Shown here one piece after another: positions 8,218-32,116 of a stretch of 36,398 bases of DNA (positions are counted from its first letter, which is position 1; every line of letters starts with the position of its first letter). The stretch lies in the IMG/VR virus record IMGVR_UViG_2537562173_000010; one strand, 5' to 3'. Source of the DNA: a virus. Its lineage: Duplodnaviria > Heunggongvirae > Uroviricota > Caudoviricetes. The notes beneath the pieces were generated by a model, which searched no databases, had not been told where the DNA came from, and worked only from the letters and a program-made list of their open reading frames with translations. The position numbers and the translations under genes were made by a program.

Positions 8218-8736
8218 TCACAGGCCGATATTGCGGCGGTGTTGCTCCAGCCGGTCGACGCCGTTCACCTTCTCAATCATGTTGATGGTGTCGATTTCGA
8301 CCAGCTCCTTACCGTCCATCGTCAGCCGGAAATAGGTGCAGACCACGGAGATTTTCGACTCGGTGTCTTCTCCCTGTTTGCCCTCGCCGGTGTCGATTTC
8401 TTTCTGACGTCCACGCATGACCACCTCGACGGCCACCGTTTCGCCGGTATCGTCGCGCTGGTAAGAGCCTGCAAAACGAATCGGTACGGAATCCACACCG
8501 GTTGCGGCGTAAAGCTCCCAGATAACCGAATCCGGGAAGCCACCGAGCGACCACTCCATTGACAGCGCATCGTCATCAAGGCCGAGGTCTACCGGTGCGC
8601 TGCCGTTCATCCCCGCACCGCGATAGTTTTCGAGCTTACGGGTCAGTTTTGGTAGCGTGACGGACTTCGCGACGCCCTGATAGCTGTAGCCGTTCAGAAA
8701 GACGTTCATTAACTTGAGTTTGCGCGGCATTGCCAT
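8218..8736 (-). CDS. FII: tail tube protein FII
   Basis: 172 aa (MAMPRKLKLMNVFLNGYSYQG...), the P2 gpFII length. Confidence 0.9.
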   Translation of the reverse strand: MAMPRKLKLMNVFLNGYSYQGVAKSVTLPKLTRKLENYRGAGMNGSAPVDLGLDDDALSMEWSLGGFPDSVIWELYAATGVDSVPIRFAGSYQRDDTGETVAVEVVMRGRQKEIDTGEGKQGEDTESKISVVCTYFRLTMDGKELVEIDTINMIEKVNGVDRLEQHRRNIGL

Positions 8737-9941
8737 CGGTCAGGCTCCTTATAATTGCTGTTAACCGAGGTGACCAGATTTGCCAGGTATTTATTGGTAA
8801 TACGCTGGCGCAGGGTCAGGTTTTCAAGAGGAGGCACCGGTGTATAGTCGTAGTCGATATACAGTTTTCCGGCCTTGAGGGTTTCCGCATCGTTGGATTC
8901 TTCGCTGAACCAGCAGGTCGCATCCACGATATAGCCGTTTGTTTTCAGCTCACGGAATTTGGCATTGATGCCGTCAACGATGTCGCGAATCAGCGTTGCG
9001 GTGATGGGCTTGTCCACCGCCCACATGTGCGCCTCAGCCATCGTGTCAGCCAGTACCTGCGCGGTGCGGGTGTAGTTTTCAAAGAGGAACAGCGGGTCAT
9101 CAGAGCAGGTACGGTTACCCCAGAATCGGAAACCGTCGCGGCGAATCAGCGTAGTGACGCCTGACTCGTTAAGCAGGTCAGCATCGGTGCCGGACTCCTG
9201 CAAATCCCAGAATACAGATGCGCTGATGCCGGTAACACCGTTTACCCCGACGTTGGACAGCGTTTTATGCCAGCCCTGCTCCTGGTCGATTTTAGCGCGC
9301 AGACCCAGCGCACGGGCGGTGGCATACGCGGTAGCGGTGGTACTGGTGACCGTATCCCATGCGAGGAAATCCGGCCAGATGACCATCAGCTCACGCTGGC
9401 TGAAATTCTGGCGGTAGGCTTTCACCTCGGAAATGGTCTTACAGCCCCATGCGCTGATATATCCGAAAGCGCGCAGCTTCTGACAGACGGATGCCAGTGC
9501 AACAGCCACCTCTTTGGTATCCAGTCCCGGCACACCGAGAATACGCGGTTTAACACCGGTTACCGACTCCGCCGCCAGCAGGGCTTTTAGTCCGGTGTAC
9601 TGACCGTTTTCGTCGGTGGTGCCGATGATATTGGAAACGGTCTGCGCGAGTTTCGTTTCCTCGTCATCACCGGTGCAGTCTTCCACGCGCACGACAACGG
9701 TGACCGGTTTTGACTGGTCAGCGATGGCCTGCAACGATGCCGCCAGCGTGCCTTTTTTACCGGCCTTTGCAATTGCGCTTTGCACATTGGTAATCAGCAC
9801 CGGTTTATTGAGGGGGAAGGTTTCCGCATCCGCATCGCTGGCCGTGCAGACCATGCCGACAATGGCAGTGGATACGGTGGAAATGACGCGGGTGCCGTCG
9901 TTAATCTCCAGCACCTGCACGCCATGATGATAGTCACTCAT
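8709..9941 (-). CDS. FI: contractile tail sheath protein FI
   Basis: 410 aa (MSDYHHGVQVLEINDGTRV...), sheath position upstream of FII. About 14 aa longer than my recollection of P2 FI. Confidence 0.85.
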   Translation of the reverse strand: MSDYHHGVQVLEINDGTRVISTVSTAIVGMVCTASDADAETFPLNKPVLITNVQSAIAKAGKKGTLAASLQAIADQSKPVTVVVRVEDCTGDDEETKLAQTVSNIIGTTDENGQYTGLKALLAAESVTGVKPRILGVPGLDTKEVAVALASVCQKLRAFGYISAWGCKTISEVKAYRQNFSQRELMVIWPDFLAWDTVTSTTATAYATARALGLRAKIDQEQGWHKTLSNVGVNGVTGISASVFWDLQESGTDADLLNESGVTTLIRRDGFRFWGNRTCSDDPLFLFENYTRTAQVLADTMAEAHMWAVDKPITATLIRDIVDGINAKFRELKTNGYIVDATCWFSEESNDAETLKAGKLYIDYDYTPVPPLENLTLRQRITNKYLANLVTSVNSNYKEPDRWQCRANSS

Positions 9942-10045
9942 CCGTTTAACTCCGTGGTTAATGGGTACAACTATTTTCTGTTGTGCAGAGCATAAGACGC
10001 TATTTGACCTGGCTGGTCAGTGGATGAAACAACAGATAAAGAAAA

Positions 10046-10064
10046 GGCGGGCAATTCGCCCGCC
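10046..10064 (-). terminator. hairpin terminator between the cargo island and FI
   Basis: Perfect 7-bp stem GGCGGGC / GCCCGCC with loop AATTC; on the minus strand it is followed by TTTTCTTTATCTG. Confidence 0.5.
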
Positions 10065-10120
10065 TGTCCTGATTTGTACTCACTCATTTTCCGCCTGACA
10101 ATTTACATAGCCCAAATGCT

Positions 10121-10144
10121 ATCAAACCTGACAGTCTGCTTTGA
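10121..10144 (+). repeat. site A: 23-bp near-palindromic repeat on the left flank of the cargo cassette
   Basis: ATCAAACCTGACAGTCTGCTTTGA; 21/23 identical to site B at 12431-12454 in direct orientation. Internally an imperfect palindrome (TCAAAC...CTTTGA). Confidence 0.65.
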
Positions 10145-10271
10145 GCGAAAAGTGGACATTAGAGTTACAAAAGCAAGTTTAAATCATCCAAAATATTACA
10201 ATGTCCTTATCTATCTGATATCGTTATGATAAAAAGCTCCTGAATATAATCGATAGTAGGTGGTTATTTCC

Positions 10272-10649
10272 ATGAAATCAATTTTAGAGGTCTTTACTCA
10301 AGGAAATACTAAAGAAAAACTGGCTGTTATCGCCGATCTCACAACCATTGCGGGAATATCGATTGCAACTATTATTGCTGGTTTGTTAACCCTAGTTGCA
10401 AAAACAGATAAACTAGATGTTGGAAATCTGTTTGGAGTTGTCATAATATCTCTGCTCGGATTGGCTGGTGTTTGCTGTTTTGTGGCCTTATTTATTTGGG
10501 TTATAACCCAAATGTCTAAACCATGGGGAACACCTCGGGGGGTTCAGCCCTTAGTTAAGTGTGCTATTTCCCTTATCTTTATCTGTATGTTTTTGCTGGC
10601 TGTCTTTACATTTTATGAGTTTATTTCTTCGATGAGCATACGCTATTGA
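10272..10649 (+). CDS. small integral membrane protein (about 125 aa, 3-4 predicted TM helices)
   Basis: ATG at 10272 with AGGTGG RBS 9 nt upstream (the ORF track starts at GTG 10260). Highly hydrophobic, AT-rich, in the Z/fun position and oriented opposite to the tail genes. Confidence 0.55.
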   Translation: MKSILEVFTQGNTKEKLAVIADLTTIAGISIATIIAGLLTLVAKTDKLDVGNLFGVVIISLLGLAGVCCFVALFIWVITQMSKPWGTPRGVQPLVKCAISLIFICMFLLAVFTFYEFISSMSIRY

Positions 10650-10671
10650 ATATAAAATCAGCCCCCATAAC

Positions 10672-11256
10672 TTAAAAGAGACCTTCTATATCGACTTCAA
10701 TGCCCAAATAACGGACTGTGCTTTCCAGTTTCTTATGGCCCAACAGAAGTTGGATCACCCGGAGACTCTTGGTTTTCTTGTAGATTAAGTAAGGTTTTGT
10801 TCTTCTCATGGAATGTGTGCTGTACAGCGAATCTTCGAGACCAAGCTTTTCTACCCACCCATGAAAAATTCGGTTGTATTGCCGGGTTGATATATGGTGG
10901 GTAGTTCCGACCCGAGAGCGGAACAGGAAGCCTTTACTATGCCAGTTGCCGAGCTTTATCAATGCAGTAACCGCTTCCCTTGTCCCTTTGGTTATCTCAA
11001 ATTGGACAGGGCTGCCGGTTTTCTGTTGCAACACCGTTGCTCTGCTTGAGACAGAACTGCCATATGCAGCATCTGATACTTTGAGTTTGACCAAATCACA
11101 GCCCCGTAGCTTAGTGTCCAAAGCCATGTTGAACAGAGCTAGATCGCGTGTTTTACCTTCCAACTCAAGTCTAATCCGGATCCCCCAGATATGAAATATC
11201 TGAAGTGGCCTTTTTTGACCGATGGTACGGTCTTTATTCCACGGTGACGTTTTCAT
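10672..11256 (-). CDS. small tyrosine recombinase, FimB/FimE-like (catalytic domain only, about 194 aa)
   Basis: Tyrosine-recombinase boxes: TKLRGCDLVKLKVSD (box I Arg), HSMRRT (H-x-x-R), LLGHKKLESTVRYLGIE (catalytic RY). No N-terminal core-binding domain. Start taken at internal Met MKTSPWNK with GGAG RBS; the ORF track's 228-aa extension is rejected. Confidence 0.75.
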   Translation of the reverse strand: MKTSPWNKDRTIGQKRPLQIFHIWGIRIRLELEGKTRDLALFNMALDTKLRGCDLVKLKVSDAAYGSSVSSRATVLQQKTGSPVQFEITKGTREAVTALIKLGNWHSKGFLFRSRVGTTHHISTRQYNRIFHGWVEKLGLEDSLYSTHSMRRTKPYLIYKKTKSLRVIQLLLGHKKLESTVRYLGIEVDIEGLF

Positions 11257-11362
11257 ATTCAAATCTCCTGCAATGTGGGAGATTTGAGTATGGTTGTCTC
11301 TCAAGAGCGAAAATAAGTCAACTATCACTAGTTGTTGCGCATGTACGTATTCTGTCAATTAA

Positions 11363-12205
11363 TTATTGACAATCATCAATTCTGGAATGATCAAAATCAT
11401 CATATCGAATTATAGTCTGGTTGACTGTATCTATTGTTGGTGTCATTTCTGTTATAATATCCTGATAACCTAAAGAGTTAAATACATTTACTAAGGCCTC
11501 ACACCGAAGGGCCGTAGCAATTACAAAATTATAAATTGCCAGCCGTTTATTTTCTTGTTTAACTGCAAGAATGAATTCGATAGCAGTATTTTCATCACTT
11601 TGGATTGCATTATATAGAGATACTATATTTACCATATCATCAGAGAATGTATGTATTGAATCACAAAGGGGAACGTAATGGGCATGATAGTGTGTTTCCC
11701 AGCCAATTAATTCAAAAAGTCTTCTGGTTCCTGGATATTCAGGTGTATTTGGCCACAATCTATTAAATAGATCAGTTAGTTCTTTTCCCATGCGAATCCT
11801 TTCATTTGCTGCTGGATTAGTCATTCCTTTGGATTTTAAACACTCCAGCCACCGTTTTCCATTACTATGAACTAATTTCTTACTAGCCTTGAGTAATGCT
11901 TGTGCATTTTCGCCATCATCTATTGCTATATAAAATTGATTGGCAGCCTGTTCTATTATAACCCTAGCTAATACTTCCGATGCTGAAAAGGCTCCTATAT
12001 TCAAAGAAGAGATAGCCTGATTACTAAGTTCATTCAGTACATTAAAGTACTGTAAGACCATCAATTTTTGTTCCACACCCTTTAGGTTGTCTATTTTATT
12101 TTTATGCTCCTCAAATTTTGCATGGATATATTTATTTATCGCGGCTATTTTTTTTACATCTTCGTCAAGATCAAACGGGCAACGTCCAAACAATTCTTTT
12201 TTCAT
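11363..12205 (-). CDS. hypothetical protein (280 aa), AT-rich cargo
   Basis: ORF with strong RBS (AGGAGA 6 nt upstream of the ATG). Very AT-rich. No P-loop or nuclease motif I recognise. Co-oriented with and 106 bp upstream of the recombinase gene. Confidence 0.65.
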   Translation of the reverse strand: MKKELFGRCPFDLDEDVKKIAAINKYIHAKFEEHKNKIDNLKGVEQKLMVLQYFNVLNELSNQAISSLNIGAFSASEVLARVIIEQAANQFYIAIDDGENAQALLKASKKLVHSNGKRWLECLKSKGMTNPAANERIRMGKELTDLFNRLWPNTPEYPGTRRLFELIGWETHYHAHYVPLCDSIHTFSDDMVNIVSLYNAIQSDENTAIEFILAVKQENKRLAIYNFVIATALRCEALVNVFNSLGYQDIITEMTPTIDTVNQTIIRYDDFDHSRIDDCQ

Positions 12206-12430
12206 ATATTTCTCCTGTTGTACAAGCTTCCATAAGTTGGCAGATTATACACTGAAGATTACCTATAAATAGCTGTGCGGGATAGCAGATCAGTGCAAGA
12301 AGTACAACCAAGTGAACTGTGCGTATTCAGATACCTGGCCTAACGTTCGCGATAGCCGTCCCCTGCACGAAGCCATATATTAGATGTATTAGCTCAGACC
12401 TTATCTGACAGGTTGAGTAGGTAGAATCTA

Positions 12431-12454
12431 ATCAAAGCTGACAGTCTGGTTTGG
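12431..12454 (+). repeat. site B: 23-bp near-palindromic repeat on the right flank of the cargo cassette
   Basis: ATCAAAGCTGACAGTCTGGTTTGG; shares the exact core CTGACAGTCTG with site A in direct orientation. Confidence 0.65.
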
Positions 12455-12550
12455 ACTGTGAGTTCAACCGATGGATGCAACACACAGCGATCTACGGACA
12501 TTACTAGCATAGCTGTGTATTAATCATCGGGAAGCAGGTCAGTCCGCTCC

Positions 12551-12592
12551 TAGCACAGAGCAGACTGTCAGATTAGGCTTTACTCTGTGCTA
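12551..12592. repeat. hairpin with 10-bp perfect stem carrying an inverted copy (site C) of the recombinase-site core
   Basis: TAGCACAGAG (12551-12560) pairs with CTCTGTGCTA (12583-12592). The loop contains CAGACTGTCAG, the reverse complement of the A/B core; the extended match to A is 13 bp (ATCTGACAGTCTGCT). Confidence 0.6.
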
Positions 12593-12626
12593 TAGATACG
12601 TTAGCTCACTCCAGAGATCATACAAC

Positions 12627-13154
12627 TTATTGCGGCATTTCCGGCCATTCAGGATTTGCAGGATCCACACGGCTGACCAGAACACTGTAGCGTTCCCATG
12701 CTTCCAGTCGGCTACGCTCCTCATCTGTTGCCATATTCAGTCTGACAGAGCGTTCCAGTGGCTGAATGATAGTTTCAGCTTCGGAAAGCAAAGCTGACTT
12801 CTGTAATTCCGCCAGTTGCAGCTGTTCGTCTGCCGTATAAATCCGCTTAATCACGGCACCATCCTTAAACATCCATTTACCTGAGTCATCAGCACGTCGG
12901 TTGGCGGTAATATCAGGAACCTCGACAACGCTAAAACCTTCAGGGTTGAGCGTTGAAGCATCTCTGGTGATGCCGACAATTATATTATTCTCATCGTAAA
13001 CAATCTTTATCGTGTCTTCCTGAAAATTACTTACTTCCTCATACCAGTTTTTTCCCTCTTCGGACCATAACCAGATAACATCAAAATTTTTTGTCAGTTG
13101 ATATTGGGCAACAGTTTTTGGATTACCCGCAGTAATATTTTTTAAATGCTGCAT
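12627..13154 (-). CDS. G: tail fibre assembly protein G
   Basis: 175 aa, the P2 gpG length, immediately downstream of H. Confidence 0.85.
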
Positions 13155-26989: not shown

Positions 26990-27008
26990 GTGCTTTCCCC
27001 GCCTCGCC
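26990..27008. other. cos site (19-nt cohesive-end sequence)
   Basis: GTGCTTTCCCCGCCTCGCC is the reverse complement of GGCGAGGCGGGGAAAGCAC, which I recall as the P2/186 cohesive end. It lies about 170 bp past Q, as in P2. Confidence 0.6.
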
Positions 27009-27323
27009 CGCCCGCTTCATGGGGCGGTTTTAATGCAGTTGCATGATGAAACTGAAATCACATCAGCACTGACCGAAACTGACAAAAAGAATAGTATCTG
27101 ACACATGCAAAAACACGCACTTAATATACGCCTATCTATAGCTCCTACAGGATTGTCAAAAAACGACCAACTCGTCATAGCGTAAACACATTTGGCTCAA
27201 CGAACACTTACGTTATATGCCTCTTGAACATATCAAAGTCTTAAGGTAGATCTTTACCACTAAGTGGCTATATTAAGCTGCTTTTTTACATACAATAAAA
27301 GCTTTATCGTATGAGGCATAAAA

Positions 27324-27875
27324 ATGGAACTTAGATTAAAAAATGTTACCAGTTATAAGAAAGACGCCTTCACAATACTGAATCTTGAAAAAAGAGTAAA
27401 CATACTATACGGCCAAAATGGTTGTGGCAAATCTACCATTTCAAATTATTTCTACGACTCTACACACACAGATTATAACGAGTGTGAATGTACCCTTCTT
27501 GACAATTACAAACCTCTTGTTTACAACACTAAATTTATTGAAGATAACTTCTATAATGCACAGGAACAAAAAGGTGTTTTTACATTAAGTAAAGAAAATG
27601 CAGATATTGAAAAACAATTAATTGAAAAAGAAGCAATTAAACAGCAACTCACAGAGCAATATAGACAAAAAAAAGGAGTGTTATTGAAATTAGAAGCAGA
27701 AATGGAAAAAAAAGAAAATGAATACATCGAATCGATCTGGAAAAAAACAGAACCAATCAGAAACTCTGTACTAAAAACCTTAATGAAAGGTAAAGTTGGC
27801 TATAAAAGACCTTTTTTTGAGATGATAAAATCATCCTCACCAATCACCTTTATTAATTTAAATGATATATATTAA
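27324..27875 (+). CDS. N-terminal fragment (183 aa) of a split Rad50/SMC-like ABC ATPase
   Basis: Walker A GQNGCGKST (codons 30-38, 27411-27437), then coiled-coil-like K/E-rich sequence. GAGG RBS 7 nt upstream of the ATG. Ends ...SPITFINLNDIY* inside the 19-bp duplication. AT-rich. Confidence 0.7.
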   Translation: MELRLKNVTSYKKDAFTILNLEKRVNILYGQNGCGKSTISNYFYDSTHTDYNECECTLLDNYKPLVYNTKFIEDNFYNAQEQKGVFTLSKENADIEKQLIEKEAIKQQLTEQYRQKKGVLLKLEAEMEKKENEYIESIWKKTEPIRNSVLKTLMKGKVGYKRPFFEMIKSSSPITFINLNDIY

Positions 27876-27889
27876 TTTAAATGATATAG
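27852..27889 (+). repeat. exact 19-bp tandem duplication at the junction of the two ATPase ORFs
   Basis: ATTAATTTAAATGATATAT (27852-27870) followed by ATTAATTTAAATGATATAG (27871-27889), 18/19 identical. Removing one unit fuses the two ORFs in frame (...SPITF-INLNDIAKEY...). Confidence 0.85.
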
Positions 27890-29559
27890 CAAAAGAATAC
27901 TCTATACTATTAGAAAATAGAAACAATGAAACCGCATTAATAACTCCTTTACATCCATATACCCCATCAATTGATGATGTAAATACATTAGCAACACCTA
28001 TAATAGATACAAGCAATAGCTATTTATCAGAAACCATTAATAAACTTCATAATCTTGACTGGGTAAAAAAAGGTAAAGAACATTATTTAGACGGTTCTAC
28101 ATGTCCGTTTTGTCAGGAAAAAACTATTAGTCACGAATTTTTAAATGCCCTTAAATCAATATTTGACGAAAGTTATTCAAAGAAAGTAAAACAGCTCTCA
28201 GATATAAAGTCAGTTTATGAGAAAAATACCATATATCATTTTAACGAAATACAAAACAATATATCATCATGTGCACTAATCAATGAGAAAGATAAAGAGA
28301 ACATTATTTCCAATATTAAAATATTGCAAAACATTGCAGAAAAAAATTTAATAAACATTATTGATAAGATCAACAATCCATCAACATGCGTTACATTAGA
28401 AATTGATAAAGAACTAGAAAATCATGTTCAGGAAAGCATAGGCGCTGTTAACAAGAAAATAAGAGACATAAATGATAAGGTTAAAAAACTCAAAGAGTAT
28501 GAGAATAAAATCGGAAAACAAGTTTGGGGGGCTCTCCATGCTTTTTGCAGCGATGATTTAGAGAATTTATCCAAACACAAAGAAAAATTCTTTGATATCA
28601 AAAAGAAAGTTCATGATGAATTAAATAATATTGAGCAACAAGGAAAAGAAAATAATCTCACAATAAAAGCATTGCGAGATAAAATATCTAACATTGATTC
28701 TACGATAGACTCAATAAACACCCATTTAAAAAATCTAGGGATCTCTGGTTTTTGTATTGAAAAACATGCAGAAAGAAAAGATATGTACATTATATCTCGA
28801 CCAGGGCATACAAAAAACCAAAATGTTTATAGATCTCTTAGCGAAGGTGAAAAAACACTAATAACGTTTCTTTATTTTTTAGAGTGCTGTAAAGGTAAAA
28901 CCGATAAAAATGATACCGATAGCAGGGATATTTTTATTGTTATTGACGATCCAATATCTAGTCTATCGCAAAACTATGTCTACGACATCGCATCAATTAT
29001 TCATCACCACATTATAAAAAATGAATTAACAAAGAAGGTATTAATCCTTACTCACAATCTTTATTTCTTTCATGAACTTATTAAGCTATCTCCTAAAAGC
29101 AGAGAAGACAAACTATTTAAGAAAAACTATTATCTAGGTAGAGTAACGAAAAATGATTTTAGTATAATTACTGAAATACAAAAAAACAGCATACAGAATG
29201 AATATCAATCTTTGTGGCAAATATTAAAAGATGCAAAAGATGGCAAAGCAAACAAAATCATAATACCGAATATTATGAGAAACATACTAGAATATTATTT
29301 TGCATTTGTTCATAGAACAGATGCTCTACAAGATGAATTAACAAAGTTGGCACGCGACGATAGCAACAGTGATTTCAAAGCATTCTACAGATACATTAAC
29401 AGAGGTTCTCACTCTGATGCGGTAAATATTACTGATATGGGCGACATAGACCCAGATAAATACCTAAAACAATTGAGAACAATATTTTCAGCTACTGGTG
29501 ACGAAATGCATTATTTAAAAATGATGGACGAACTAGAAGAGGAAAACGTTACCGCTTAG
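27862..29559 (+). CDS. C-terminal fragment (565 aa) of the split Rad50/SMC-like ABC ATPase, with a possible HEPN-like C-terminal domain
   Basis: CPFC (28102-28113) within the coiled-coil region; ABC signature-like LSEGEK; Walker B DIFIVIDDP with D-loop SSLS; H-loop LILTHN. The C-terminal 170 aa contain R-x3-E (RNILE) and RYINRGSH. AT-rich. Confidence 0.7.
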   Translation: MIYINLNDIAKEYSILLENRNNETALITPLHPYTPSIDDVNTLATPIIDTSNSYLSETINKLHNLDWVKKGKEHYLDGSTCPFCQEKTISHEFLNALKSIFDESYSKKVKQLSDIKSVYEKNTIYHFNEIQNNISSCALINEKDKENIISNIKILQNIAEKNLINIIDKINNPSTCVTLEIDKELENHVQESIGAVNKKIRDINDKVKKLKEYENKIGKQVWGALHAFCSDDLENLSKHKEKFFDIKKKVHDELNNIEQQGKENNLTIKALRDKISNIDSTIDSINTHLKNLGISGFCIEKHAERKDMYIISRPGHTKNQNVYRSLSEGEKTLITFLYFLECCKGKTDKNDTDSRDIFIVIDDPISSLSQNYVYDIASIIHHHIIKNELTKKVLILTHNLYFFHELIKLSPKSREDKLFKKNYYLGRVTKNDFSIITEIQKNSIQNEYQSLWQILKDAKDGKANKIIIPNIMRNILEYYFAFVHRTDALQDELTKLARDDSNSDFKAFYRYINRGSHSDAVNITDMGDIDPDKYLKQLRTIFSATGDEMHYLKMMDELEEENVTA

Positions 29560-29782: not shown

Positions 29783-32116
29783 TCAAACACAGAAAAAATC
29801 AAAGCGCCCTATGAATCCCCCCCAACCATCAGCGACCGGATACGTGAATTTTTTCCCGTCATAATTTACGGTCGCTCCACGCGCCAGCGCCTCAAGCTCC
29901 CATCGCTGCGGCATGATACCGTTCTGAGCAAGGTCAACGCGGATACGGGTGATTTGCAATCGTTCAGACCTGGTCAGTCTGGCAGATGGTGCAATTTCAT
30001 GCGGTTTTAACGGGCTTCCGTTTCTTTGCTGACGGTTTGGCGTTCTCAGGTCGTATTTTAATGCGCCCCTGAGCGCCCTCACGACCTCCGGTTCATTCCA
30101 TTCAATAACACCGTCATCAACCAGATTAAGCACTGCTGCGGCGTGCTCAGAAGGTGTGGGAGCCGGTAACGAAGTATCACCACCGGTGAGCTTTCCACAG
30201 TTATTGACAGGACTCCGAGGCGCGGCGATGCCGCTTTTTAAAGTCAAAGGCTCAACGACCGGAACTTTCGGCACAATGCGCCAGTCCGTCGTTCTGGTGA
30301 TATGAATATGACGCGCGCCGAGATGCGGCGCGTAAATGCCGACCACTCTCTCGACTTCTTCCTCGTACTCGTTAACGTCATCCGACGGGCTACGGGCAAC
30401 CCTGACAGTCTGACAATCGCGCGGGACATTTGCCCCCCCCTGCGCGCTGATATACAACGCAAAATCACCACTGTCTGCGGCAGCGCGAGCAGCCTCGACG
30501 CGTTCGTCAAACTCATCAGCAATACTGACGCCGCGAGGCAATTTGCGTAGTTCACGGTAAGCCCCCATTGTCGGCAGGCCAACCGTTTTAAATTGCGGAA
30601 TTCGCCACGTTGACGCCCATGCGGTAACAGCCGCAGCAGTATCTTTCAGCGGCCTGCCGGTATCATTATCGAGCTGACCATCCAGTGCATAGCCATCGAT
30701 GTTTTTTGAGATGTATTTTGCGATATACCCCGCAGCACCGCCCCGGTTAAGATGTTTTGCCTGAAAACGGTTTCGCGCGGCTCCTCTTTCGTCGCCATCC
30801 TCTTTGAGCGCATAGCGACGCATGATTTCGATAATCTGGTTACGCTGGCGTGGATTACAAAAAAGCATCATATGCCAGTGCGGCGTTCCGTCGTGGTGTG
30901 GCTCGACGACACGCAAACCGTAGACCTGTAAATCATTATCCTTGAATGCCGTGCGCATCAGGCTCCAGATATGGCAGAGATAACGCTGCGCATCCTTTGG
31001 ATTAAATGCCTCATCGTTCCAGCCGTGATTTAGCTGGACGGTTTTACTTTCGCCTTTTCCGACCTGACGTGTCGGGTGATACTTTGACGGCGCGGTAAGC
31101 GTGATAAACATCCCCACATCACCCTCTGCGGCGGCGTAACGCTCAATACCGGCAATGGTGTTCATCAGCTCCATCCGGCGAATTTCAGGATTAGAAATAC
31201 TGCCCATCACCTTACTGATAAGGTCGATGCGTTCGCCGGTTTCCCTGTTTTCAAGGTCACACGATTTAAGAAATTCCAGATTTGCCTGGCGGCGTGCACG
31301 CACATCACGAATGGCATGTTTACTGGCATAAGGTGAACGGTCTTTATTGACCTCCCCGACAGCAATCAGTAACGCCTCATGCCAGCGCATACGCTGGCCT
31401 TTAAGCTGACTAATCCACCACTCATCGTTAAACAGGCGGGCAATGGCAGAATATGCCTGCCTCGTGGTCATCTGTCCTTTACGGTATTTTTTCCAGTAGA
31501 GCGGGGAAATATTGAAAGCACGTGCAGCGCCAGCAACATGACCATAGAGGTGAGCCTGCGCCTCATCCGTAAACAGCGATTCTTTTTCGCCATGCGCATC
31601 CACCCAGGCATCGCAGAGTTCCTCATACATCATGAAAAGCTGCGATGAGATACGGGCGGCAAACTTTTTCAGCTCCTTATCATTCATCCCCGGCAGACGC
31701 GCATAATGGTCACGCTCTGCCAGAAACAGCAACGACGCGTCGGTGTTCATTTCATGGCGCTGATTCACACGCTCAATGCGCGGCCATAAACGACGCTGAA
31801 AAGTGGATGTGAGGAAATAAAACCCGTGCACCGGGCTTTTATTGCGCCGGATGTAGTCATAGCGTGAAGTAAACAGCGAGCGCAAAAAGTAAGGCAGGCG
31901 GTTAATCGTGGATAAAACACCTTGCACCTGACGCATCTCGTCACGTGTAAGGGGTCTTTCGCGCCCGACGGCCTCGCGTGGCGCGTTCCATGCATAAGCA
32001 CCGGTAAACGTCTTACCGGTGCCTGCGGTAAATGCTGACGGAGGGACAAAACGCCCGGAGGCTTTAACGGCCATATGAGCCAAAAGCCTCTGAACAACGC
32101 TTGCTGAGTTGCTCAA
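29783..32116 (-). CDS. A: replication initiation protein A (rolling-circle nickase)
   Basis: 777 aa in the P2 gpA position (P2 gpA is about 761 aa from memory); large basic protein adjacent to the early-operon ORFs. Confidence 0.85.
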   Translation of the reverse strand: MSNSASVVQRLLAHMAVKASGRFVPPSAFTAGTGKTFTGAYAWNAPREAVGRERPLTRDEMRQVQGVLSTINRLPYFLRSLFTSRYDYIRRNKSPVHGFYFLTSTFQRRLWPRIERVNQRHEMNTDASLLFLAERDHYARLPGMNDKELKKFAARISSQLFMMYEELCDAWVDAHGEKESLFTDEAQAHLYGHVAGAARAFNISPLYWKKYRKGQMTTRQAYSAIARLFNDEWWISQLKGQRMRWHEALLIAVGEVNKDRSPYASKHAIRDVRARRQANLEFLKSCDLENRETGERIDLISKVMGSISNPEIRRMELMNTIAGIERYAAAEGDVGMFITLTAPSKYHPTRQVGKGESKTVQLNHGWNDEAFNPKDAQRYLCHIWSLMRTAFKDNDLQVYGLRVVEPHHDGTPHWHMMLFCNPRQRNQIIEIMRRYALKEDGDERGAARNRFQAKHLNRGGAAGYIAKYISKNIDGYALDGQLDNDTGRPLKDTAAAVTAWASTWRIPQFKTVGLPTMGAYRELRKLPRGVSIADEFDERVEAARAAADSGDFALYISAQGGANVPRDCQTVRVARSPSDDVNEYEEEVERVVGIYAPHLGARHIHITRTTDWRIVPKVPVVEPLTLKSGIAAPRSPVNNCGKLTGGDTSLPAPTPSEHAAAVLNLVDDGVIEWNEPEVVRALRGALKYDLRTPNRQQRNGSPLKPHEIAPSARLTRSERLQITRIRVDLAQNGIMPQRWELEALARGATVNYDGKKFTYPVADGWGGFIGRFDFFCV

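Follow-up and report, generated by a model that had tools for sequence, protein, structure and literature searches.

The window, by which we mean the whole stretch of DNA that was analysed (36,398 nucleotides, GC 49.8%), is a P2-like E. coli prophage, with its first 17.8 kb being 99.98% identical to a prophage of ATCC 11775, the type strain of E. coli, where the counterpart prophage adjoins yegQ/ogrK. On the minus strand at 11363–12205 lies a gene for a protein of 280 aa (32 kDa, pI 5.7), which is called the DUF5677 gene below after its Pfam family. The locus is flanked by the tail-fibre assembly gene G (12627–13154) and the sheath gene FI (ending at 9941), and the interval between G and FI here is the Z/fun hotspot, a second defence-enriched locus of P2-like phages, for which the occupants on record are fun and three PD systems. 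In this interval an AT-rich cassette of 2.4 kb holds the DUF5677 gene, a small tyrosine recombinase and a 125-aa membrane protein.

The DUF5677 ORF begins with ATG, has no internal stops and is preceded by the Shine-Dalgarno sequence AGGAG at 12212–12216 (minus strand), 6 nt 5' of the ATG. Its GC content is 34.2% and its GC3 is 24.6%, compared with 55.8% and 66.2% in the FI tail-sheath gene. The Walker A motif ([AG]xxxxGK[ST]) of P-loop NTPases is absent from the protein, and since the maximum 19-residue Kyte-Doolittle mean is only 1.35, with no window above 1.6, the protein has no membrane helix; with neither a transmembrane segment nor a signal peptide, it does not have the features of a membrane-acting exclusion protein. 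From its stop (11363) to the start of the co-oriented recombinase (11256) there are 106 nt, the DUF5677 gene being the upstream one. The first-pass annotation, which was made from the letters of this DNA, is thus borne out in its description of an intact 280-aa ORF with a strong ribosome-binding site, AT-rich codon usage foreign to the phage and no P-loop or transmembrane motif, lying directly upstream of and co-oriented with the recombinase in a locus where P2-like phages carry defence genes.

It is noted that the same annotation saw no family to which the protein could be assigned, and this statement has to be withdrawn. The protein scores 39.5 bits with Pfam PF18928 (DUF5677), for which the cutoff is 27.1 (E 8e-10), with an alignment of residues 50–194 to profile positions 4–158 of the 166, and the RefSeq name of the product (WP_000711883.1) is 'DUF5677 domain-containing protein'. 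The same model matches 64 of the 65 aligned relatives, and the protein resembles them in having the full domain above the gathering score in a single-domain architecture, all of them being about 270–300 aa long. A match over the full length was also found to PHROG 4167, which is annotated 'unknown', while NCBIfam gave no match. The search for remote homology, which had been suggested together with the annotation, therefore succeeded on the side of the family (Pfam) and gave nothing on the side of solved structures, with no match at E <0.1 in the sequence-profile search of the PDB. The DUF5677 family has few members: a word-indexed search gave ten relatives from 5.8 billion clusters, and a profile search that was run exhaustively over 1.84 billion representatives gave 82, nearly all of the latter being single-domain proteins of 260–330 aa. 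The named members come from single species or strains of Pseudomonas, Burkholderia, Reinekea, Leptospira and Erwiniaceae. The distribution of DUF5677 is patchy and rare, and the proteins from enterobacterial prophages form only a minor clade in the family.

The AF2 model made with 8 sequences was mediocre (pLDDT 77), while the model made with 65 sequences has a pLDDT of 95.3 and a pTM of 0.92 and consists of ten helices and no strands. Based on this model, the protein is predicted to be a soluble, cytoplasmic, all-helical bundle. Foldseek searches gave nothing significant, either against the PDB, where the poorer 8-sequence model was used, or against viral structures, so that structure prediction, which had been proposed as a check, provides a confident ten-helix model but no convincing solved neighbour. 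In the 65 diverse members there is no conserved peptide stretch. The polar positions E77, R81, E85, N89, E170, D182, S183, H185, E/D189, D190, N193 and E218 are conserved, with E77 being E or D in 100% and R81 being present in 100% of the sequences. R81, E85 and N89 have the i, i+4, i+8 spacing in helix 3 and the segment D182–N193 spans the junction of helices 7 and 8. Judged by conservation, the invariant cluster of carboxylates, His, Arg and Asn (E77, R81, E85, N89; D182, H185, E/D189, D190, N193; E218) points to an enzyme that depends on metal and not to a protein that merely binds. If so, the cluster would work as a metal-dependent active site, and as a guess we would name a nucleic acid or a nucleotide as the substrate of the candidate enzyme.

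The protein might alternatively be a HEPN-type RNase toxin that aborts the infection via RNA cleavage, but we regard this as improbable. The HEPN proteins AF0298 (2hsb) and TT1696 (1ufb) are half the size of the DUF5677 protein, in which an Rx4-6H motif is not conserved, and other helical bundles score as well as the HEPN structures against it. Membership in HEPN is rejected by the motif: the sole instance, R267-x5-H273, is not conserved, R267 being replaced by Q in close relatives, and Rx4-6H is absent from the conservation list of the 65 sequences.

In each context where it is found, the DUF5677 gene is accompanied by the 220 nt of DNA upstream of it (12206–12425, minus strand), with the homology to locus L047 starting at 12425 and that to loci L009 and L046 further upstream. 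This region contains a perfect −10 hexamer, TATAAT, at 12244–12249, with a good −35 missing, and a full promoter was not found in the consensus scan upstream of the ORF. The region is presumed to be the gene's own promoter region. Moreover, a strong intrinsic terminator is predicted at 10045–10065 (minus strand), between the cassette and the FI operon, and because this terminator sits past the cassette, late read-through from the G operon would also transcribe the DUF5677 gene. The lysogen would be expected to make the DUF5677 protein. The Rfam scan of the 2.8-kb cassette region 9900–12700, including the 420-nt gap upstream of the ORF, gave zero RNAs at E up to 1. The same gap contains no ORF and the downstream neighbour is the recombinase, which speaks against a type II toxin-antitoxin pair; an overlapping ORF (82 aa) is seen only in the Pseudomonas homologue.

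The boundaries of the cassette are marked by two 24-bp palindromic sites, both with an 8-8-8 layout. The type-1 site, at 12542–12565 on the side of gene G, reads GTCTGCTC-TGTGCTAG-GAGCGGAC on the minus strand and is supported by the pattern match together with the breakpoint of homology to a Buttiauxella copy; the type-2 site, at 10134–10157 on the FI side, reads GTCCACTT-TTCGCTCA-AAGCAGAC on the minus strand and is supported by the pattern match together with the breakpoint of homology to P2-EC58 at 10151. The spacers are about TGTGCYAG in type 1 and about YTCGCTCW in type 2. The pattern GTCYRYT-N9-10-ARYRGAC has exactly these two matches in the window, compared with 0.01 expected from simulations. 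Next to the type-1 site, on the cassette side, lies a conserved cassette-end element of about 55 nt (12486–12541, minus strand), which ends in TAATGTCCG, has matches in loci L014, L017 and L042, and is adjoined by one breakpoint of lambdoid homology (locus L009, 12490). Further inside, at 12405–12453 (minus strand), the repeat comparison shows an inner repeat with the core CAGACTGTCAG, which is a direct repeat of 10095–10143. Note that the 11-mer CAGACTGTCAG occurs once more, as a fourth exact copy, at 30402–30412, far from the cassette, the other three being at the cassette repeats; allowing up to one mismatch, 0.39 matches to it would be expected in the window by chance.

The recombinase (10672–11256, minus strand) has 194 aa and consists of the catalytic domain only, with the R, HxxR, H and Y residues in place (Pfam Phage_integrase, E 2e-17). 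Neither the Xer models nor the invertase and integron models give it a score anywhere near their cutoffs, as detailed below. Of 5426 complete E. coli genomes, 869 (16%) have relatives with 85–90% nucleotide identity, which are located in lambdoid prophages, islands and plasmids (22 plasmid records). The 3' end of the gene in the window differs from every relative past 10690, which suggests a junction within the last codons. The recombinase's ribosome-binding site (GGAG) and ATG are covered by a hairpin (11254–11292, minus strand; arms of 15 bp, loop of 9 nt) that is kept in all recombinase loci examined; it may be a translational brake or a binding site. The 125-aa membrane protein (10272–10649) is encoded on the plus strand, opposite to DUF5677, and is the second cargo gene of the cassette, being a RefSeq CDS that belongs to PHROG 4155. 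It has multiple strongly hydrophobic stretches, with a Kyte-Doolittle maximum of 2.84, and had no match in Pfam or PADLOC. It is missing from the lambdoid and Buttiauxella versions of the cassette and is therefore a separate cargo piece, possibly an exclusion protein.

The same sites recur at other loci. Seven loci with related recombinases were examined (L014–L017 and L022–L024), corresponding to five distinct loci, and five of the seven share the 24-bp sites; by comparison, none of the sites was found at the eight loci of distant DUF5677 homologues. Taken together, the sites are recorded for the window and for loci L014, L015, L016, L022, L024, L046, L047 and L001. The order in a cassette is the type-1 site, then the genes, then the type-2 site, and at a cassette junction two sites stand in tandem, a type-2 site being followed, after about 18 nt, by a type-1 site. 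When the window is compared with the Buttiauxella copy, which is 96.6% identical, the homology begins within the type-1 spacer, with the cassette and the right arm in common and the left arms different. This is the pattern that would be expected as the signature of site-specific exchange. Across the loci compared, the breakpoints of homology are located in the spacers of the sites.

The cargo beside the related recombinases includes genes that are themselves validated or candidate anti-phage genes, namely PD-T7-1 (E 7e-157), PD-T7-5 (E 8e-102) and, at two loci, HEC-08/DUF3644 (E 1e-173), as well as a dynamin-like protein with weak similarity to LeoBC and several unknown proteins. In their cassettes, PD-T7-1 and PD-T7-5 (Vassallo et al., 2022) and HEC-08 take the place that DUF5677 has here, next to a recombinase that is 85–90% identical and between the same 24-bp sites. 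They differ from the present case in that their proteins are unrelated to DUF5677 (hhalign probability 0.2% or less) and that their genes are divergent from the recombinase, while the DUF5677 gene is co-oriented with it. In the E. coli 042 prophage, PD-T7-1 with an intact recombinase is located in the nin region, at the same place as the lambdoid alleles of DUF5677 that are described below.

It is noted that the sites also flank Z/fun cargo where there is no recombinase. The recombinase-less cargo of P2-EC58 has a perfect type-1 site on one flank and a type-2 site on the other, which are given in GenBank as left and right inverted repeats. A review (PMC8987985) credits Nilsson et al. (2004) with the statement that inverted repeats lie on both sides of fun and enable site-specific recombination. 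The pair of sites in the window, like the same pair around the P2-EC58 cargo, is of this inverted-repeat kind. P2 Fun(Z), the T5-exclusion gene, shares with the DUF5677 gene the G/FI locus, the kind of inverted-repeat sites and the character of AT-rich foreign cargo; it differs in that it lies alone, with no recombinase, and the two proteins have no similarity (BLASTP E 14, hhalign probability 0.6%).

The cassette resembles those of integrons in having promoter-poor cargo, short imperfect palindromic sites and a tyrosine recombinase. The pdif (Xer) modules of Acinetobacter plasmids are likewise promoter-poor cargo units between short imperfect palindromic sites and are moved by a tyrosine recombinase. 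Unlike in these two, the recombinase here has 194–200 aa, consists of the catalytic domain only and is carried inside the cassette. The integron-integrase models, with cutoffs of 265 and 435, give 17.6 bits, and the Xer models, with a cutoff of 335, give 42.6 bits. With no score at the level of IntI, and with 24-bp 8-8-8 palindromes that are unlike attC or dif, identity with an integron is rejected. In its length of about 200 aa and in having no separate N-terminal core-binding domain, the recombinase is similar to the DNA invertases of FimB/FimE type, and the 'tyrosine-type DNA invertase' model gives a weak match (E 9e-5, 22 bits against a cutoff of 222). Unlike with FimB/FimE, there is no sign of inversion, because all 36 full-length copies of the cassette have a single orientation, and an element that is inverted by recombination between its inverted sites is rejected on the same count.

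Since the DUF5677 gene lies 106 nt upstream of the recombinase in the same orientation, it could be argued that its product is an accessory of the mobility or maintenance of the cassette, such as a directionality or architectural factor or an addiction module. Lambdoid phages and a Buttiauxella genome have received the two genes as a pair, and DUF5677 is statistically enriched beside serine recombinases in Bacillota. Against this, the DUF5677 gene is retained in the lambdoid prophages where the recombinase has a 74-bp deletion and frameshifts, it is intact in the P2-like contig L034, where a 1-kb deletion takes out the recombinase, and in locus L047, which has no recombinase, and the distant homologues have no adjacent recombinase. 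Thus the gene stays intact with a broken recombinase and also with none at all, be it deleted or absent, and is cargo rather than a partner of the recombinase. Moreover, in the sister cassettes with the same recombinase unrelated genes fill the same position, and the Pfam search detected no DNA-binding motif in the protein. We therefore consider a mobility accessory to be an unlikely identity for it. Together with some 220 nt of the DNA upstream of it, the DUF5677 gene has travelled among at least four kinds of mobile context.

The gene is present in 57 of the 5426 complete E. coli genomes (about 1%), 38 of which have the P2 allele and 19 the lambdoid allele, the two being roughly 92% identical. 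Reference strains among the carriers include ATCC 11775, IHE3034 and E2348/69. This rarity, an IS3 insertion in one copy and a frameshift in one lambdoid copy could be taken to mean that the ORF is decaying or spurious and has no function. The damaged copies are a minority, however: except for the IS3 case, the frame is intact in the 57 E. coli genomes, and it is intact in other genera too, so that the concern about disruption in related copies applies to the frameshifted lambdoid copy and the IS3 case but not to the gene at large. Among alleles from four contexts dN/dS is 0.20–0.38, the DUF5677 gene being under purifying selection, and there are residues invariant across phyla and a fold predicted with very high confidence. 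A dead ORF is effectively refuted by these conservation data. Selection preserves the gene also in copies with a decayed recombinase.

The neighbours of the homologues give further indications. The lambdoid allele directly adjoins Septu (PtuA, E 1e-165; PtuB, E 1e-83), followed by hokD, rem, DUF968, rusA and Q. In the lambdoid prophages of loci L008–L013 and L035–L044, an 86–87% identical allele is located in the nin-region hotspot, upstream of hokD and rem. The Erwiniaceae homologue (41% identity) lies behind the replication genes in a lambdoid prophage and has DUF4365, NADAR with PRTase-CE, and GAPS4 as neighbours, while another prophage copy has a HAD hydrolase, a methylase and an AAA_15/21 ATPase nearby. 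The Leptospira copy is accompanied by a C5 methylase, HATPase_c_3, Vsr and an integrase, and the Burkholderia copy by SLATT_5 and a reverse transcriptase. In Bacterium BS0013 (L047, 5676–8480), the DUF5677 gene (94% identity) and a gene for a 423-aa PLD-family nuclease form one site-bounded cassette by guaA, which may be a two-gene variant. The Buttiauxella cassette adjoins a Tn3-family transposon, one homologue is on a conjugative element near TrbL, and two, at the P0005 locus and the Pseudomonas locus, lie in ordinary-looking chromosome. From this survey it follows that most of the independent contexts are mobile or defence islands.

Based on these data, we propose for DUF5677, carried as cargo of a hotspot cassette, the role of a single-gene anti-phage factor that has an enzymatic centre, and we give this reading, the most likely one, a probability of about one half. 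The proposal can be described as follows. The DUF5677 gene is the main cargo of the 2.4-kb cassette inserted into the Z/fun hotspot, this cassette having two 24-bp palindromic boundaries and bringing along a minimal tyrosine recombinase; this recombinase and these sites also delimit other E. coli cassettes, those with validated or candidate anti-phage genes; and the protein made in the lysogen would act by exclusion or abortive infection. A defence role is likely because of the defence neighbours, the purifying selection and the sister cassettes with PD-T7-1, PD-T7-5 and HEC-08. The figure is kept at about one half because the basis is contextual, because no defence model matches and because a member of the family from Bacillota is not among the reported protectors.

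With regard to the last two points, PADLOC-DB v2.0.0, searched at E up to 1, has no family for any of the three cassette proteins (DUF5677, recombinase, membrane protein), so that the annotation of defence systems, which had been named as a check of the first-pass reading, gives no match. A distant Bacillota DUF5677 gene that was challenged with six phages in E. faecalis is outside the five of nine genes reported as protective, and the published version of that Enterococcus study does not mention DUF5677; the supplements of two hotspot papers do not mention it either. The first-pass annotation had called the protein the candidate effector of the hotspot cassette. The context speaks for a horizontally acquired cargo that probably serves in defence or exclusion, while the term 'effector' goes beyond what is given by the defence models and by the Bacillota homologue.

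The same two points would also fit a moron with a role other than defence, such as counter-defence, host fitness or virulence, or the modulation of physiology during lysogeny. The carriers in E. coli are mostly ExPEC, APEC and EPEC, P2 hotspots are also known to carry partition systems and cytolethal distending toxin, and one homologue is near TrbL on a conjugative element and two are in plain chromosome. We consider such a moron the less probable explanation, perhaps half as credible as the anti-phage one: in most of the mobile contexts the immediate neighbours are defence genes, and a surface or secreted factor would be expected to have the signal peptide or membrane segment that the DUF5677 protein lacks. 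Counter-defence genes are common in virulent phages, and the presence of the DUF5677 gene in zero of the 50,697 phage records of the collection therefore does not speak for counter-defence. In plasmids the gene was found once in 72,556 records.

If DUF5677 does protect, it would be a new defence family, with a fold that is unsolved and probably with a new catalytic centre. The family name and the role of Z/fun as a cargo hotspot are already known. That all parts hold jointly, i.e., that the single DUF5677 gene encodes a new anti-phage enzyme, its fold having no solved relative, and that this is linked with the mobilisation of the cassette, we consider rather doubtful, though not far-fetched. 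Among the strains carrying DUF5677 are tractable reference strains. The anatomy of the cassette may outweigh the gene itself, with a small recombinase and two kinds of 24-bp sites delimiting the PD-T7-1, PD-T7-5, HEC-08 and DUF5677 units. According to a 2026 survey of P2 and P4 hotspots, the swapping of defence genes is still unexplained, and the cassette, if it works as described, would provide a concrete mobilisation mechanism for it. Since the 24-bp sites flank Z/fun cargo even when there is no recombinase, the hopping of defence genes between hotspots is directly testable.

Finally, we note several features of the prophage outside the cassette. In FI (8709–9941, minus strand), a 2-nt insertion at about 8750 relative to ATCC 11775 has led to the loss of the tail-sheath stop codon, and the ORF has 410 aa rather than 396 and extends into the start of the tail-tube gene. 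Compared with the ATCC 11775 prophage, 407 bp are missing at about 17816 (within that record's baseplate V gene) and 331 bp at about 25621 (near the terminase/portal boundary), and given both missing segments the prophage may be defective. In addition, a second strongly AT-rich island, with a GC content of 27–31%, is present at 27000–29500, at the position of the old/tin hotspot, and its counterpart in ATCC 11775 is an AAA family ATPase interrupted by ISEc12.
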